Shown here piece by piece: positions 4,567 through 26,847 of a DNA stretch of 55,046 nt; positions within the stretch are counted from its first letter, which is position 1; every line of letters starts with the position of its first letter. Origin of the DNA: Candidatus Nealsonbacteria bacterium. Lineage in GTDB: Bacteria > Patescibacteriota > Minisyncoccia > Minisyncoccales > PWPS01. The notes under the pieces are model-generated. The model saw nothing but the letters and a program-made list of their open reading frames with translations, was not told the origin of the DNA and did not search any database. Both the position numbers and the translations under genes were made by a program. The DNA is taken from NCBI GenBank assembly GCA_003551845.1, contig PUNQ01000054.1:1-55046 (forward strand), read 5' to 3'.

Positions 4567-4938
4567 ATGAAAAAAGTATTGATAATAGAAGATGAGAAGC
4601 TCGTAAGGAATTTAATATCCAAGAAGTTATCCGAGAAAGGTTTTGTCGTTGAAATTGCCGAGAATGGAAAGAAGGGTTTTCAAAAAATAAAAGAAACGGA
4701 ACCGGACTTGATTTTGCTGGATATCATAATGCCGGAAATGAACGGATTCGAAGTTCTCGAAAAGATGCAAGAGGAGAATATCGAAGTGCCGGTAGTTATC
4801 GTTTCCAATTCCGGACAACCGGTCGAGATAGATAAAGCCAAGGAATACGGTGTCAGGGATTGGATAGTAAAGACAAAATTCGATCTTCAGGAAGTAATTG
4901 AAAAGACAGTGGCTCAAATAGGAAAACCACAAAAATAA
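4567..4938 (+). CDS. Single-domain response regulator (receiver)
   Basis: IIEDE, LLDIIMPEMNGFEVL, conserved Ser and Lys. Confidence 0.92.
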   Translation: MKKVLIIEDEKLVRNLISKKLSEKGFVVEIAENGKKGFQKIKETEPDLILLDIIMPEMNGFEVLEKMQEENIEVPVVIVSNSGQPVEIDKAKEYGVRDWIVKTKFDLQEVIEKTVAQIGKPQK

Positions 4939-4971
4939 TAGTTAATATTAATAAATAATAAATTAAAAAAC

Positions 4972-19385: not shown

Positions 19386-20357
19386 ATGTTTTTAAGATAC
19401 CAAAAACGAAAATTCATCCCGTTAGAGATAAAGAATGCACTTTATAATTATAAAAAAAAGTGCACTAAGAATCGCTTGGAGCGATTCCCGTCTCTAACGG
19501 GGTTTACGCTAATAGAATTACTAATTGTTGTCGGAATAATAGCGATTTTAGCAGCTGCGGTAGTGGTGGTCATAAATCCCGGCCGGCAATTCGCCTCCGC
19601 AAGGGATGCGACCAGAGAATCTCATATAAACAGCTTATACACTTCTCTTATATCTTACCAAGTAAGCCATCAGGGCGGATGGGATGAAATAGGCATGCCG
19701 CAAGAATTAACTGAGATTTGTAACACCAATTTGAATAATCCCGATTGTGAAGATTTGGTCAATCTTTCCACACTGGTTCCTGATTATATTAATCAAATTC
19801 CGGTTGATCCACAAGGCAGTGTAAGTGCGGTGCAGGATGGAACGGGATACTTTATTTCCGAAAGCAGCATTATTCTTGTCGCTGAAAATTGGGAAACCAG
19901 ATTTTTGGGAGTCGGTATGACGGAAGACCAATATGCGGAATATGTTGAAAATTTTAGTTGTGACGAATATGAAGGAGTTATTGTTTTTTATGGAGACCCG
20001 GTTTATTGTGATATGTCCGGAAATATTTGGACCCCGACTTTGGATTTGACTGCCGATGGTGGTAATTATCAGGACTACGATTGGAGTAGTGCTATTGACC
20101 AATGTGAAAATTTGGATTACGGGGGTAAAGATGATTGGGGGTTGCCCGGCCTTTCCGATCTGGAAGAGCTTTATGACGGGGCGGGATCGGAGCCGAGTTA
20201 CGATATTAATGCCCGGTCGGCGGGCTATTGGTCTTCCATGTCGGATATGATGGGAGGAGCATGGATGGTGGATTTTTCCAACGGAGAGTCGAGTGTAGAC
20301 GATGTAAGTGAGCACAACTTTATTCGTTGTGTTCTTGAGGAAGGGATTTCAATTTAA
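19386..20357 (+). CDS. Type IV pilin-like protein fused to a C-terminal DUF1566/Lcl-C-like domain
   Basis: G|FTLIELLIV N-methylation motif; WSSAIDQCENLDYGGKDDWGLP...EL, YWSS, AWMVDF, FIRCV. Confidence 0.8.
   Translation: MFLRYQKRKFIPLEIKNALYNYKKKCTKNRLERFPSLTGFTLIELLIVVGIIAILAAAVVVVINPGRQFASARDATRESHINSLYTSLISYQVSHQGGWDEIGMPQELTEICNTNLNNPDCEDLVNLSTLVPDYINQIPVDPQGSVSAVQDGTGYFISESSIILVAENWETRFLGVGMTEDQYAEYVENFSCDEYEGVIVFYGDPVYCDMSGNIWTPTLDLTADGGNYQDYDWSSAIDQCENLDYGGKDDWGLPGLSDLEELYDGAGSEPSYDINARSAGYWSSMSDMMGGAWMVDFSNGESSVDDVSEHNFIRCVLEEGISI
19416..19503. mobile_element. MITE/REP-like inverted-repeat element inside the pilin leader
   Basis: Terminal IRs atcccgttagaga / tctctaacggggt (1 mismatch) enclose the hairpins tgcacttt..aaagtgca and gaatcgct-tgg-agcgattc. 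Confidence 0.7.
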
Positions 20358-22996: not shown

Positions 22997-24109
22997 ATGA
23001 GCAAATATAAAAATGGAGGTTTTACTCTCATAGAATTACTAATTGTCATAGGAATAATAGCGATACTCGCTTCCGCTATTATTGTAGTCATAAATCCCGG
23101 CCGGCAATTCGCCTCCGCAAGGGATGCGACAAGAAACAGTCACATAAACTCACTTTATAATTCACTTATTTCCTATCAAGTAGCCAATCGAGGAAATTGG
23201 GGTGAAATAGACCTACCTCAAGAACTTACCGAGATATGTAACAGCAATCTTGAATCTCCGGATTGTACCGGTTTAGTTGATCTATCCGATTTGGTAGACA
23301 ACGGTTATATAAATCAAATACCCTTAGATCCTCATGCCGAAGGTTACGGAACCGGTTACGAAGTAGCCGAGGCAAGCGTTATTTTAAGAGCTCCACTGGC
23401 TGAAACACGGTTTATAGGAATAGGAATTGTCGAGACCGAATATGCGGAAAACGGAAACGGTGGAGAATTTAATTGCGGAGATGACTTTACCGACAATAGA
23501 GATGGAAACATTTACGCAACTGTAGAAATAGGTGGCCAATGTTGGTTTACTGAGGATTTAAGGTATGAATGTGATAATTTTAATGATGTGGGTGAAGATG
23601 ATGCCACCAATTGGGATGGAGACGGTTGTGCCCCACAAGGAGATAATTATAATGGACTTCTGTATCAATGGGGTGCGGTAATGGATTGGGATGGTGAAGG
23701 AGATCCACCCGAGGAAGGATCGCAAGGAATTTGTCCCGACGGATGGATTGTTCCCACCGATGATGACTTTAAAGAATTGGAAATAGGGCTGGGAATGAGT
23801 CAGTCCGATGCAGACGGTACGGGATATAGAGGAGATCAGGAGGGAGATATGCTAAAATCCGATCCGGAGGTGGAAGATTGGTGTCACACATCTATGGATT
23901 GCGCAACTTCAGGATGGGAAGGATTACCTGGCGGTTACCGCCACAACCATGGCTACATCATCAATGTCGGTTCGAGTGGTCGCTGGTGGTTTTCTACTGA
24001 AGATGGTACTGGTGCCTGGGCCCGGCATCTTCACAGTACCTTCAGTGCAGTCAGCCGTCTCTCCACCGCCCAGAATTCCGGTCACTCCGTTCGCTGCCTC
24101 AAGAACTAA
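22997..24109 (+). CDS. Type IV pilin fused to a FISUMP (Fib_succ_major) domain; probable DGR target
   Basis: G|FTLIELLIV; DNRDGNIYATVEIGGQCWFTEDL, GLLYQW, QGICPDGWIVPTDDD, GHSVRCLKN. Confidence 0.88.
   Translation: MSKYKNGGFTLIELLIVIGIIAILASAIIVVINPGRQFASARDATRNSHINSLYNSLISYQVANRGNWGEIDLPQELTEICNSNLESPDCTGLVDLSDLVDNGYINQIPLDPHAEGYGTGYEVAEASVILRAPLAETRFIGIGIVETEYAENGNGGEFNCGDDFTDNRDGNIYATVEIGGQCWFTEDLRYECDNFNDVGEDDATNWDGDGCAPQGDNYNGLLYQWGAVMDWDGEGDPPEEGSQGICPDGWIVPTDDDFKELEIGLGMSQSDADGTGYRGDQEGDMLKSDPEVEDWCHTSMDCATSGWEGLPGGYRHNHGYIINVGSSGRWWFSTEDGTGAWARHLHSTFSAVSRLSTAQNSGHSVRCLKN
23930..24109 (+). other. Putative DGR variable region (VR)
   Basis: 50 of the last 59 codons end in C/T and only 2 end in A; abrupt switch to GGY Gly and CGN Arg codons. 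Confidence 0.7.
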
Positions 24110-24117
24110 TTGCACTC

Positions 24118-24251
24118 GATACCCTCTTTTGAGAGACCACGCCTCGAATCGTCCGGCGACGATTCGGGCCTTACGCTCTCGGCGTTTCATTTCCAACAAG
24201 GTCGGAAAACCATGCTGAAACGCCTGCGAGAGTCCTCTCAAAGAGGGTATC
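24118..24251. repeat. Structured inverted-repeat element directly 3' of the VR
   Basis: gataccctcttttgagag / ctctcaaagagggtatc outer IR; inner stems cgaatcgtc-cggc-gacgattcg and ggcgtttca...tgaaacgcc. Confidence 0.8.
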
Positions 24252-24279
24252 TTCGCTTAAAAGTTACGATCGCGAACTT

Positions 24280-24299
24280 CCTGCCTGCCGGCAGGCAGG
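24280..24299. repeat. Perfect 20-bp REP-like palindrome
   Basis: CCTGCCTGCCGGCAGGCAGG. Confidence 0.9.
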
Positions 24300-24341
24300 T
24301 TTCAACCCCAATCCCTCGCTTAAGGGAAAAAATAGACAAAT

Positions 24342-24448
24342 ATTTCACGCACCAGGTGCGTGCATACACTCCTACACTCCCACCCCATTTTCACGCACCA
24401 GGTGCGTGCATATAGGCGTAAAGTAGCATTGATTTCCGATTACGGATT
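24342..24448. repeat. Right copy of the direct repeat with two CACGCACCAGGTGCGTG palindromes
   Basis: Palindromes at 24346-24362 and 24392-24408; tail ggcgtaaagtagcattgaYttccgattacggatt shared with the left copy. Confidence 0.95.
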
Positions 24449-24524
24449 AAAGATTAATGATTGCGAAAACGTTTATTTTTCAAGTTGAAAATAATCGAAA
24501 TTATATTATACTTGAATTCAAGAA

Positions 24525-24611
24525 GGAGAGGTGCCGGAGCGGTCGAACGGGGCACCCTGCTAAGGTGTTGTGCCTTCACGGGTACCGAGGGTTCGAATCC
24601 CTCCCTCTCCG
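24525..24611 (+). tRNA. tRNA-Ser(GCT)
   Basis: ggagagg/cctctcc acceptor stem, gcacc ct GCT aa ggtgt, long variable arm, G discriminator. Confidence 0.95.
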
Positions 24612-24613
24612 CA

Positions 24614-25053
24614 TTGACAGTCAGTATTTATTTAAGTTAATTGTTTATGCTAATTGGGTTGGTGAGTGAAGTTGATTCGAACGGTTTTTCCCCGTGTTGA
24701 AAAACAGTCCAGTGCATATCCCGACATCATATTCTGAGCGACAGTACTTTGAATCAGTTTGCAGGAACGAGGATAAAAGTTTGTTATTTACAAACGATAG
24801 ACGAGTGACGACCAAAATGATCAAAGTACGGTCGTCCAAAAGAAAGCTTTTTAAAATTCATCTTCGGCGTTACTTCGTCAATCACGATAGCCTTCCGGCA
24901 TCGCTCAATCCTTGCGCCTTGAATCTGAATCTTAAAGAAGCTTCTCAGAATATGATTGATCGGGTATGACACTGGACGCTAAAAAACGTGGTTTTTTAGA
25001 GCCAGGGGGTCGGGGAAAAACAGGTGTTTATTTCGAATCCCTCCCTCTCCGCA
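24614..25053. mobile_element. Non-coding structured element ending in a duplicate of the tRNA-Ser(GCT) 3' end
   Basis: 22-bp ttcgaatccctccctctccgca at 24592-24613 and 25032-25053; long internal IR tccagtgcatatcccgacatcatattctgag / ctcagaatatgattgatcgggtatgacactgga. Confidence 0.75.
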
Positions 25054-25101
25054 CTATCTGAAGAGAGAGGAGGGTTGTAAATAATCGAGAGGATAAAACC
25101 G

Positions 25102-25186
25102 GGTGGGGTGGTCGAGTGGCTTAAGGCAGCGGTTTTGAAAACCGCCAACCCTCACGGGTTCGTGGGTTCGAATCCCACCCCCACCG
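25102..25186 (+). tRNA. tRNA-Ser(TGA)
   Basis: ggtgggg/ccccacc acceptor stem, gcggt tt TGA aa accgc, long variable arm. Confidence 0.95.
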
Positions 25187-25189
25187 CAT

Positions 25190-25651
25190 ATAAAGCAGAA
25201 TATTAAAAAATACAATTAATTGAGATGGATAGAGTTGACAAGCAGGATTCGAACTTTAGGGGAGTGAGATCCGAATCAAAGTCCATTCAGCGAGAATGAT
25301 GCAGGTTCATATTTTAGGCTCGAGGAGTAAAAGATATTGTTCAATATCTTGTCGACGAGAACGACAAAGATGGACATGCATCACTCGCCCGAAGGGAAGC
25401 ATTTAAATGTTCGTCTTCGTTGTCATTTCGTCGCTTACAATGTTTGCACATTGTTCACTCCTCATTCCTAAAATCCGAACATTTAAAAAGCTTCTGAATG
25501 GATTGGGGTTCGAATTCCCCTCCCCTATAAAAGGGGTCGGGAAAAATTAATGAATTTTTCCCGTGTTGGGAAAGACTAAAACCCGTGGGGTTTTAGGGGG
25601 CAAGCCGTCCGGTGGGCGGCGAAGCGACTTCGAATCCCACCCCCACCGCAT
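25190..25651. mobile_element. Non-coding structured element ending in a duplicate of the tRNA-Ser(TGA) 3' end
   Basis: 23-bp ttcgaatcccacccccaccgcat at 25167-25189 and 25629-25651; nested IRs. Confidence 0.75.
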
Positions 25652-25753
25652 TAAGAACAAGATAGTAGAAAGCACAATCGATGTGGACGGGCGGAATTGA
25701 TAAGAAGATATGACTACCCTGAACTCTACGTAGTTCAGGGCCACCCCCACCGC
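25652..25753. repeat. Third partial tRNA-Ser(TGA) 3'-end copy preceded by a REP-like hairpin
   Basis: ccctgaact-ctacgt-agttcaggg followed by ccacccccaccgc (25741-25753). Confidence 0.7.
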
Positions 25754-25821
25754 TTTAATTCAAGCCGGTTGCAAAAAATATTTTTATCACTTATCATTAT
25801 TAAAAGATTTAACTTTGTAAT

Positions 25822-26847
25822 ATGCCTCTATTTTCAAATGAGCCCAAAAAGTGTTTAGGGGTGGATATAGGATCAACTTCAATTAAAATAGTAGAGCTTA
25901 CCAGAACGAGAAACGGAATTTCACTTTCAAATTACGGAATAGCTTCCATAAGAGACATAACCGGCAGGGAATTGAGAAGAAAAACGAGTGACGATTTTAT
26001 ATCTTCCGTGGATATTATTTCAGAAGCGATACAGATAATTTTAAAAGAGGCGGATATTAAAACAAAAAGAAGCGTTTTCGCAATCCCCGATTTTACCAGC
26101 TTTTTCACCTCTTTCGAAGTGCCGAAGATGGAAAAATCCGAAGTTGAATCCGCGATTCAATTTCAAGCCAGACAAAGAGTACCGCTTCCCTTGAATCAGG
26201 TTACATTGGATTGGACTCTTACCGGAATCAGAGATTCCGGAGAGCAGGAGATGGTGGAGGTTTTGCTTTTGGCCGTACCCAATGAAACTGTTAATTCTTA
26301 TAGAAACGTAGCTAAAAAAACCGGCTTGGACGCCGGCTTGCTTGATGCTGAGACTTCCGCTTTTGCAAAAGTTTACGGAAGAAAAAACGAGACCGTAGCC
26401 GTTATCGACATAGGAGACAAAAGTACTACGGTTAACATAATAGAGGATGAGATTCCGAAGCATAGTCACAGTTTGGACATAGCGGGTAAAGACTTTACCG
26501 AAGATTTTGCAGTATTGCCGGAAATTGAAAGGACGGAAAAGGCGGTCAGTCAAACTACGGAAAAAATTAAAAAATCTCTTTCTGAAGATTTGGTTTCCAA
26601 CATTATTGATGCAATCGGAAGCTATGAAGCGGGAGGAAAAAAGGTTGATGAAGTTATTTTAACCGGTGGAGGAGCTAATTTTAGAGAAATTCGGGAAAAT
26701 TTGGGGAAGCATTATAAAATTTCAATCGCTAATCCCTTTCAAAGTCTTGACTACCCCTCCATTTTGGAAGAAGTATTAAAAAAAGATCTGTCTCCCCTCT
26801 GCTCGGTAGCGGTCGGGATGGCGATGGAAGGTTTGAATTTAGAATAA
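25822..26847 (+). CDS. pilM: Type IV pilus assembly protein PilM
   Basis: GVDIGSTSIKIVEL, VIDIGDKST and ILTGGGA actin-like motifs; first gene of the T4P operon. Confidence 0.9.
   Translation: MPLFSNEPKKCLGVDIGSTSIKIVELTRTRNGISLSNYGIASIRDITGRELRRKTSDDFISSVDIISEAIQIILKEADIKTKRSVFAIPDFTSFFTSFEVPKMEKSEVESAIQFQARQRVPLPLNQVTLDWTLTGIRDSGEQEMVEVLLLAVPNETVNSYRNVAKKTGLDAGLLDAETSAFAKVYGRKNETVAVIDIGDKSTTVNIIEDEIPKHSHSLDIAGKDFTEDFAVLPEIERTEKAVSQTTEKIKKSLSEDLVSNIIDAIGSYEAGGKKVDEVILTGGGANFREIRENLGKHYKISIANPFQSLDYPSILEEVLKKDLSPLCSVAVGMAMEGLNLE

Follow-up and report, generated by a model that had tools for sequence, protein, structure and literature searches.

The segment of about 440 bp that follows the tRNA-Ser(GCT) gene in the window (the whole 55,046-nt stretch analyzed here, contig C20 of an 864-kb Candidatus Nealsonbacteria assembly labelled G000) is made up of two gene-free folded DNA units, the inner one nested in the outer one. 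The outer unit belongs to an apparently undescribed family of guide-bearing elements that is widespread in Patescibacteria; no description of this family was found in the literature searched, which was mostly openly accessible.

Structure of the segment behind tRNA-Ser(GCT)

The original prediction had described the segment as one integrase-free element that duplicates the tRNA 3' end, and its sequence observations largely held. The att-like 22-bp direct repeat is exact and runs from the T loop to the discriminator (Table 1), the motif complementary to it is present as GATTCGAAC, the pair gtttttccc/gggaaaaac was found as an 11-nt perfect inverted pair, and the imperfect inverted repeat of ~30 bp was located at 24707-24738 and 24944-24977, with a 13-nt perfect part included. 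The sequences of the smaller stems proposed within it are also in place, but the pairing of gacgacc with ggtcgtc is absent from the predicted folds, in which these arms pair otherwise. As claimed, there is no credible ORF: the segment has only ORFs of 62-91 aa, none of them conserved, and the 91-aa ORF halts after 38 codons in a 93%-identical copy from genome G004. Folded as DNA, the 440 nt gave a z-score of -8.26 (0 of 100 shuffles equal), and the segment and tRNA folded as RNA gave -6.96 relative to shuffles. A contig from run X1, which is possibly the source sample, matches 24584-25176 with zero differences, and an assembly slip can therefore be dismissed. In the Rfam comparison that had been called for, run on 24100-25830, the gathering score was reached by tRNAs only; this covariance-model scan gave no match to group I or II introns, ribozymes or other Rfam RNAs.

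Table 1. Features of the two elements and their host tRNA genes (window coordinates).
Feature	Position	Strand	Basis or remark
tRNA-Ser(GCT), intact host gene	24525..24612	+	ARAGORN; Rfam RF00005
Target site in T arm, GTTCGAATC, complementary to guide	24591..24599	+	Sequence, inverted pair
Copy 1 of 22-nt repeat (T loop to discriminator)	24592..24613	+	Repeat search
60-nt spacer	24614..24673	+	Homologous to spacer behind G003 tRNA-Ser(CGA), z 4.7-5.7
Guide GATTCGAAC, 9 nt (10 nt in sister copies)	24674..24682	+	Sequence, alignment
First part of outer core, with arm B (24684-24694; partner strand 25011-25021) and small hairpin C	24684..24704	+	
Inner three-armed fold-back element, separate insertion	24707..24977	+	Missing in sister copies; relatives elsewhere
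Outer core, hairpin D	24979..24999	+	Fold, alignment
Outer core, arm A (GGGGGTCGGGGAAAAAC) and element end	25005..25031	+	Arm A after B, C and D: permuted
Copy 2 of 22-nt tRNA end	25032..25053	+	Repeat search
tRNA-Ser(TGA), host gene of sister element	25102..25187	+	ARAGORN
Sister element, common unpermuted form, behind tRNA-Ser(TGA)	25167..25651	+	DNA fold z -6.89
Sister element, copy 1	25167-25189	+	
Sister element, guide	25245-25254	+	
Sister element, inner ~275-nt element	about 25255-25529	+	Directly after guide
Sister element, core	25530-25628	+	
Sister element, copy 2	25629-25651	+	

An alignment of seven copies from six genomes of the genus defined the outer unit as a tRNA end, a spacer of 31-63 nt, a guide, a core of ~85 nt and a second tRNA end. 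It occurs at Ser(GCT) in G000, G005 and G006, at Ser(CGA) in G002, G003, G004 and G006, and at Ser(GGA) at locus L305. Because of its homology to the spacer behind another tRNA-Ser gene, the window spacer seems to travel with the element. The same architecture had been expected at other tRNA 3' flanks of the assembly, and it recurs at one of them: among the 47 tRNAs, a tail copy of at least 14 nt lies only downstream of Ser(GCT) and of the neighboring Ser(TGA), on the + strand, and the other 45 lack one. A guide-like motif is retained 58-61 nt downstream of each of the organism's four tRNA-Ser genes. Among nine genomes of the genus, the Ser(GCT) locus was empty in four, held a remnant in one and carried the common form in one; the four empty loci are evidence for mobility. 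The segment is not the remnant of a larger integrase island, since sister copies are smaller, not larger.

The common form has the order guide-A-B-C-D-end-target copy, and the window element guide-B-C-D-A-target copy, which places its target arm in the loop of the A:B hairpin. This permuted pattern was detected in 3 of 251 genomes of the order, two of them in this genus (three genus genomes in the sample); the third had no evident guide. Such a permutation would be expected from a circular intermediate that was opened elsewhere, and it speaks for a circle.

The assumption of one element had to be given up, as the segment is a compound in which an inner unit of ~271 nt forms a separate insertion. 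This follows from three observations: sister copies lack 274 nt (24705-24978) that G000 and G004 carry between hairpins C and D, a contig from run X3 omits exactly these positions (joint 24704-24979), and G003 has a relative of the inner element in reverse orientation after hairpin D. Within the outer element the inner family occupies three positions, in both orientations. The nine relatives aligned were all 269-275 nt long. Two of ~273 nt form stem-closed insertions inside the 23S rRNA gene of contig C64 of G000 (L288:984-1256 and 1472-1744, within the RF02541 match), one lies in the sister element at Ser(TGA), and free intergenic relatives were present in G021 and G020. The closing stems vary in sequence yet stay complementary, with compensatory changes readable between both 23S copies; this covariation comes from pairwise reading, because RNAalifold on the nine elements gave a poor consensus and missed the outer stem.

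Several other features were seen in the same assembly. A truncated permuted form lies behind tRNA-Ser(GGA) (C51, about 4800-4940), cut by the palindrome of the Y1 gene of C66, and a guide alone behind tRNA-Ser(CGA) (C25, 52069-52078). In the window, a diverged spacer copy precedes a further hairpin and a 13-nt piece of the tRNA-Ser(TGA) end behind it (25717-25753); this hairpin unit stands alone behind Ser(TGA) in G003 (L005), and is possibly a third, smaller element type. Two REP-like palindromes (24343-24366 and 24389-24412) belong to the kind that flanks the Y1/RAYT-type gene of contig C68 (L122). A third palindrome, short and GC-rich, at 24281-24300 belongs to another family. Two pilin-like genes with an N-terminal methylation motif and long C-terminal extensions (19386-20357 and 22997-24109) neighbor a type IV pilus assembly cluster that starts at 25822. 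Besides, tRNA genes for Ser(GCT), Ser(TGA), Arg(GCG) and Glu(TTC) recur in the same order on contig C8 (1-3700), as a distinct second set that lacks elements; C8 is probably another organism's contig in the bin.

A family with target-following guides

A pattern for the A:B hairpin of the core matched in 72 of 301 genomes of the class, versus 11 matches in 9 genomes for the reversed control; 3 of 30 inspected loci were chance matches. A stricter pattern gave at least 121 loci in a GTDB scan, and the 80 titled loci among the matches listed comprised 66 Patescibacteria, 10 named as bacterium only, 3 Bdellovibrionales and 1 WS2. In viral contigs the strict pattern had no match, and none of the three matches to the loose pattern had the element architecture. 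The core is a conserved multi-helix structure with conserved single-stranded purines. Its A:B purine/pyrimidine pair was A-T in 89, G-C in 17 and other in 5 of 111 copies, and the outer pairs of hairpin D formed in 286 of 380 cases versus 129 with arms swapped, kin not being independent in either count. Thus related elements elsewhere, empty alleles and covariation, all named in advance as expectations of a genuine element, were found.

We examined the guide in 111 cores with enough flank (11 skipped), seeking a pairing site 15-150 nt upstream with a score of at least 11. The guide paired with its own target in 70 of the 111, versus 59 of 1665 for swapped guides; for cores without a called tRNA the figures were 23 of 52 versus 5 of 780. 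In an independent set of loci, the own guide beat every swapped guide in 16 of 26. Guides had a median length of 15.5 nt, and 45 of the 70 lay at one offset 5' of the hairpin. A second copy of the target was present in 59 of the 70 guide-bearing loci, with a period of 114-267 nt, although the scoring penalizes repeats beyond 250 nt and long ones could be hidden.

Among tRNA genes, 26 types are targeted, in the T arm; further targets are tmRNA and protein genes, at the 3' end in gapA, rpsI, rpmG and fusA and at the 5' end in dnaX, fusA, rplN, rpmB and GTPases of the typA/lepA type (names read from translations, with Pfam support for the GTPase at L150). The original prediction of a non-autonomous, tRNA-targeting element whose end pairs with T-arm sequence is thus supported in its mobility and pairing, but neither as a single element nor as one limited to tRNA genes. 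Elements at 5' ends lie antisense to the gene and thus always point away from the gene body. The dnaX guide tracks a synonymous third position in three of four species. For the guides of L037 and L038, the usual T-loop sequence is a better match than that present at the locus. Elements of the common form are arranged in tandem at the gapA 3' end in G000 (C1, about 940-1260) and G008 (L041), with guides that match gapA. Another palindrome interrupts the final unit in G000. In G149, G079, G249 and G290 (L081-L111), the core lacks guide and repeat, reaches a high copy number (up to 17) and lies within other GC-rich hairpins; it sometimes flanks small gene blocks or sits in a coding region.

Comparison of the two target copies indicated that each has been in use. 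From 34 candidates for codon comparison, 13 were dropped (wrong frame or past the repeat) and one further was left out. The 15 coding targets with differences between copies had 70 synonymous versus 24 non-synonymous codons, and five more targets were identical. For a dead duplicate, an estimated 25-40% of differences would be synonymous; as the copies differ mainly synonymously, both have functioned as gene ends. For one dnaX pair, the closest relative has the start of the distal copy in each of its own two copies, and the proximal copy departs from it; this single case fits an imported proximal end. Spacers are common to different tRNA-Ser genes (z 9.8, 9.3 and 6.0-6.6; many pairs are unrelated), and the compound elements of G000, at Ser(GCT), and of G004, at Ser(CGA), are 90-93% identical.

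At positions 1-7, copy 1 paired with the guide in 53-59 of 59 copies and copy 2 in 23-34, the latter pairing in 46-53 at positions 8-11. The size of this contrast is overstated, because the pairing register was chosen ungapped on copy 1, and kin are not independent. Mismatches in copy 2 include recurring substitutes such as GTGA for GTTC, and non-host letters recur in its first 7 nt in unrelated lineages as well as in the permuted copy L305. A mini-hairpin of 10-25 nt is found inside the T loop of copy 2 in L066, L067, L068, L073, L075 and L115, recurring across families; it may inactivate or mark the distal site.

Proposed mode of insertion and alternatives

We think it probable that the outer unit is a non-autonomous mobile element that moves as a folded single-stranded DNA circle, lets guide pairing pick the site and brings a replacement gene end. 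Support is provided by the anatomy, the family, guide-target covariation, patchy occupancy, the sharing of spacers and the compound element between tRNA-Ser genes, copy recoding and the strand bias of the fold. The circle would contain the gene end, spacer, guide and core. Pairing between the guide and the circle's own target copy would leave ~7 nt mismatched, and the entire guide would pair with the host target. A trans-acting enzyme would then swap one strand pair ~7 nt into the target, and replication would complete the event by a logic like that of CTX phage. The gene end of the element would complete the gene, so that the gene would survive, and the old host end would be displaced downstream as copy 2. 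More tentatively, the system may represent natural DNA-guided site-specific integration, in which a protein-free single-stranded circle of ~170 nt, with a 10-20-nt guide settable to any conserved gene end, leaves the gene unbroken and recruits a putative structure-recognizing recombinase.

Candidates for the enzyme are the host's single Xer-like tyrosine recombinase and an outside HUH-type enzyme. A Pfam scan of 125 of 136 neighboring ORFs (11 target-gene ORFs excluded, long ones cut to 330 aa) found no recombinase, transposase or reverse transcriptase (RT), and all-against-all BLAST of 567 neighboring ORFs found no recurring unknown neighbor. In 35 element-rich versus 38 motif-free genomes ("motif-free" meaning no match to one pattern), Y1 was present in 16 versus 31, DUF559 in 9 versus 12 and large serine recombinase in 10 versus 22. 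Tyrosine recombinase occurred in 5 of 5 carrier genomes and in 14 of 14 controls, IS110 DEDD transposase in none of the 5 carriers, and RT genes were present in G000 and absent from 2 of the 5, one of them single-contig. None of these enzymes, profiled in 35 versus 38 genomes (Y1, DUF559, serine recombinase) or in the five (IS110, RT, tyrosine recombinase), tracks the family, and no larger integrase-bearing version of the element was found. Among the joints listed from four runs, whose contigs drop rare forms, there was neither a circle junction nor a precise empty allele. G000 has three Y1 genes, and those inspected are each flanked by their own, other palindromes. At L062 (G300 C19), a large serine recombinase gene lies between the tRNA end and the element guide, apparently as a second, nested insertion at the same T loop.

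The failure to find an enzyme or a circle junction weighs against the folded circle, and so do other observations. In the young copies L031, L032, L041, L117 and L209, identical duplicates extend across most of the spacer, and target copying would explain this equally well; the two tRNA copies are in every case of the host's own isoacceptor type, for which the circle model needs conversion or branch migration; 41 of 111 cores have no scored guide; and the family of L081-L111 carries the core with neither guide nor repeat. These facts, together with the match of guides to synonymous variants of the host, are what a self-programming insertion would produce, in which the core alone is mobile, host gene end and flank become duplicated on insertion, and template switching writes the guide as an inverted target copy. 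We nevertheless consider such a course unlikely, as it does not account for spacers common to different tRNA-Ser loci, for the 70 versus 24 recoding of second copies, for the non-host letters recurring at the start of copy 2 across unrelated lineages and in L305, or for the preference of the L037 and L038 guides for the usual T loop. An ordinary att-type satellite, that is, a gene-less remnant mobilized as double-stranded DNA by a tyrosine or serine integrase, with hairpins that are incidental or serve as arm-type sites, is disfavored and quite unlikely. The targets (tRNA, tmRNA, gapA, rpsI, rpmG, fusA, dnaX, rplN and typA/lepA-type starts) have no common sequence, the overlap region often differs between copies, an inverted, covarying guide is foreign to att sites, and neither a larger integrase-bearing version nor a true copy in viral contigs was seen, even though the repeat, which begins in the T loop, restores the 3' end of the tRNA, the switch point is ~7 nt into the target, all five tested genomes have a tyrosine recombinase and the L062 copy adjoins a serine recombinase gene.

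The remaining alternatives involve RNA, and the strand signature bears on both. C-GNA-G triloops are unusually stable in DNA. They numbered 65 on the core strand and 9 on the other strand, versus 20.6 in shuffles (maximum 31), and in 12 copies antisense to a gene 8 versus 0 (shuffle mean 1.8, maximum 7); the core strand folded better in all 12 of these copies. The window's own outer core is without such a triloop, and cUUCGg occurred once. A count of G.T versus A.C pairs (30 versus 8) was biased by the scoring and was set aside. GNRA tetraloops were also enriched (116 versus 46 shuffled), so an RNA form is conceivable. The co-transcribed structured RNA offered by the original prediction, a host element pairing with the T arm and controlling folding or trimming of the tRNA precursor, would agree with the strong RNA fold, the position of 47 of 47 tRNA-linked copies on the transcribed strand, the guide-like motif behind all four tRNA-Ser genes and, weakly, a sigma-70-like site at 24485-24512 with no terminator called before the element (5 sites versus 2.9 expected). 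In the RNA centroid fold of tRNA and segment, the guide pairs with copy 2, and the tRNA would thus be left free of the guide if the unit were co-transcribed. We regard this RNA role as very unlikely: occupancy is patchy, the same core bears the fold signature with equal strand bias even where it is antisense at protein-gene starts, Rfam gave no match, and the second, recoded gene end would be left unexplained. Least probable in our view is an RNA-circle or retro element, whose precursor would be cut at both repeats by a ribozyme-like, permutable core, circularized, reverse transcribed and reinserted. Circular permutation, the conserved multi-helix core with its single-stranded purines, the GNRA enrichment and the RT genes of G000 speak for it; against it are two of five carrier genomes without RT (one single-contig), the lack of a ribozyme family match, the DNA-type triloops and the antisense copies, whose folding strand would not be transcribed from the host gene.

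Relation to known systems and significance

Integrative elements that target tRNA genes insert in the T loop, restore the gene with an element-borne 3' end and leave the displaced fragment downstream; they also occur at protein-gene ends. The outer family is similar in T-loop insertion, in the direct repeat that restores the tRNA 3' end and in the fragment left downstream. It differs in having no integrase in or beside the element, a period of 114-267 nt, an inverted guide and many unrelated targets per core. Its overlap varies: the two 22-nt copies of the window element are the same, and in the 59 copies compared across the family mismatches fall on about half of positions 1-7. In IS110/IS1111 elements, a structured non-coding part, the bridge or seek RNA, programs the target and a circular intermediate is formed. 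Programmable recognition by a structured non-coding part and the circle, here proposed, are shared with them, whereas the guide of the outer family is contiguous and in cis beside the target, a gene end is duplicated and no IS110 transposase is present in 5 of 5 carriers. IS200/IS605 elements with their gene-less derivatives, and REP/RAYT systems, are also comparable. The outer family has a guide at a fixed distance as these do, and has neither a 4-nt guide without target duplication nor a cognate Y1: Y1 genes do not track it, and those seen are flanked by other palindromes. To our knowledge, known integrases recognize the target through protein, and the guides of single-stranded transposons in nature are 4 nt long.

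The closest working model would be CTX-phage integration via folded single-stranded attP, combined by analogy with IS608-like guide pairing, although the outer family lacks defining features of both systems, as it does of integrase islands and IS110. According to the part of PMC4246890 consulted, CTX uses a folded single-stranded attP with partial overlap homology, lacks an integrase of its own, and makes one strand exchange that is finished by replication. In both cases two inverted arms pair in single-stranded DNA across a loop (90 bp in CTX, mostly 20-80 nt in the outer family), overlap homology is partial and an own integrase is absent, single strand exchange with replication being proposed here (PMC4246890, in part). 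In CTX, integration is directed at dif, and the arms are dif-like sites bound by XerC/XerD (PMC4246890). The arms of the outer family follow the target gene, and neither dif-like sites nor a dif target were seen, the targets being unrelated gene sequences. The outer family also differs in that its loop carries a replacement gene end and a phage genome is absent. With IS200/IS605 (IS608), as covered by the sections of PMC5934647 used here, the family shares a single-stranded hairpin, a guide at a fixed place 5' of the hairpin foot, target choice by base pairing and an AAAG-like word before the hairpin. The natural IS200/IS605 guide in these sections is 4 nt long, with no target duplication and no gene end carried, and engineered IS608 guides reach 12-17 nt, the length seen naturally in the outer family (PMC5934647).

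As for the inner element, short insertions or intervening sequences that are ORF-less and unclassified have been reported in CPR 23S rRNA (PMC11270868, in the portion consulted). The inner element, found twice in a 23S rRNA gene without an ORF and with a long closing stem, resembles them. In that portion they are treated as rRNA insertions and are not tied to a mobile repeat, whereas the inner ~270-nt family is also present in intergenic DNA and in the outer element (PMC11270868).

The inner element thereby ties a class of uncharacterized 23S rRNA insertions to a mobile repeat. The outer family accounts for a common, unannotated part of the intergenic DNA of Patescibacteria and shows how pieces of essential genes can be exchanged between species. 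If true, the combination of one conserved core with a long, target-following guide would be a natural programmable route of insertion, and the enzyme of such guide-directed insertion would have direct use in genome engineering.
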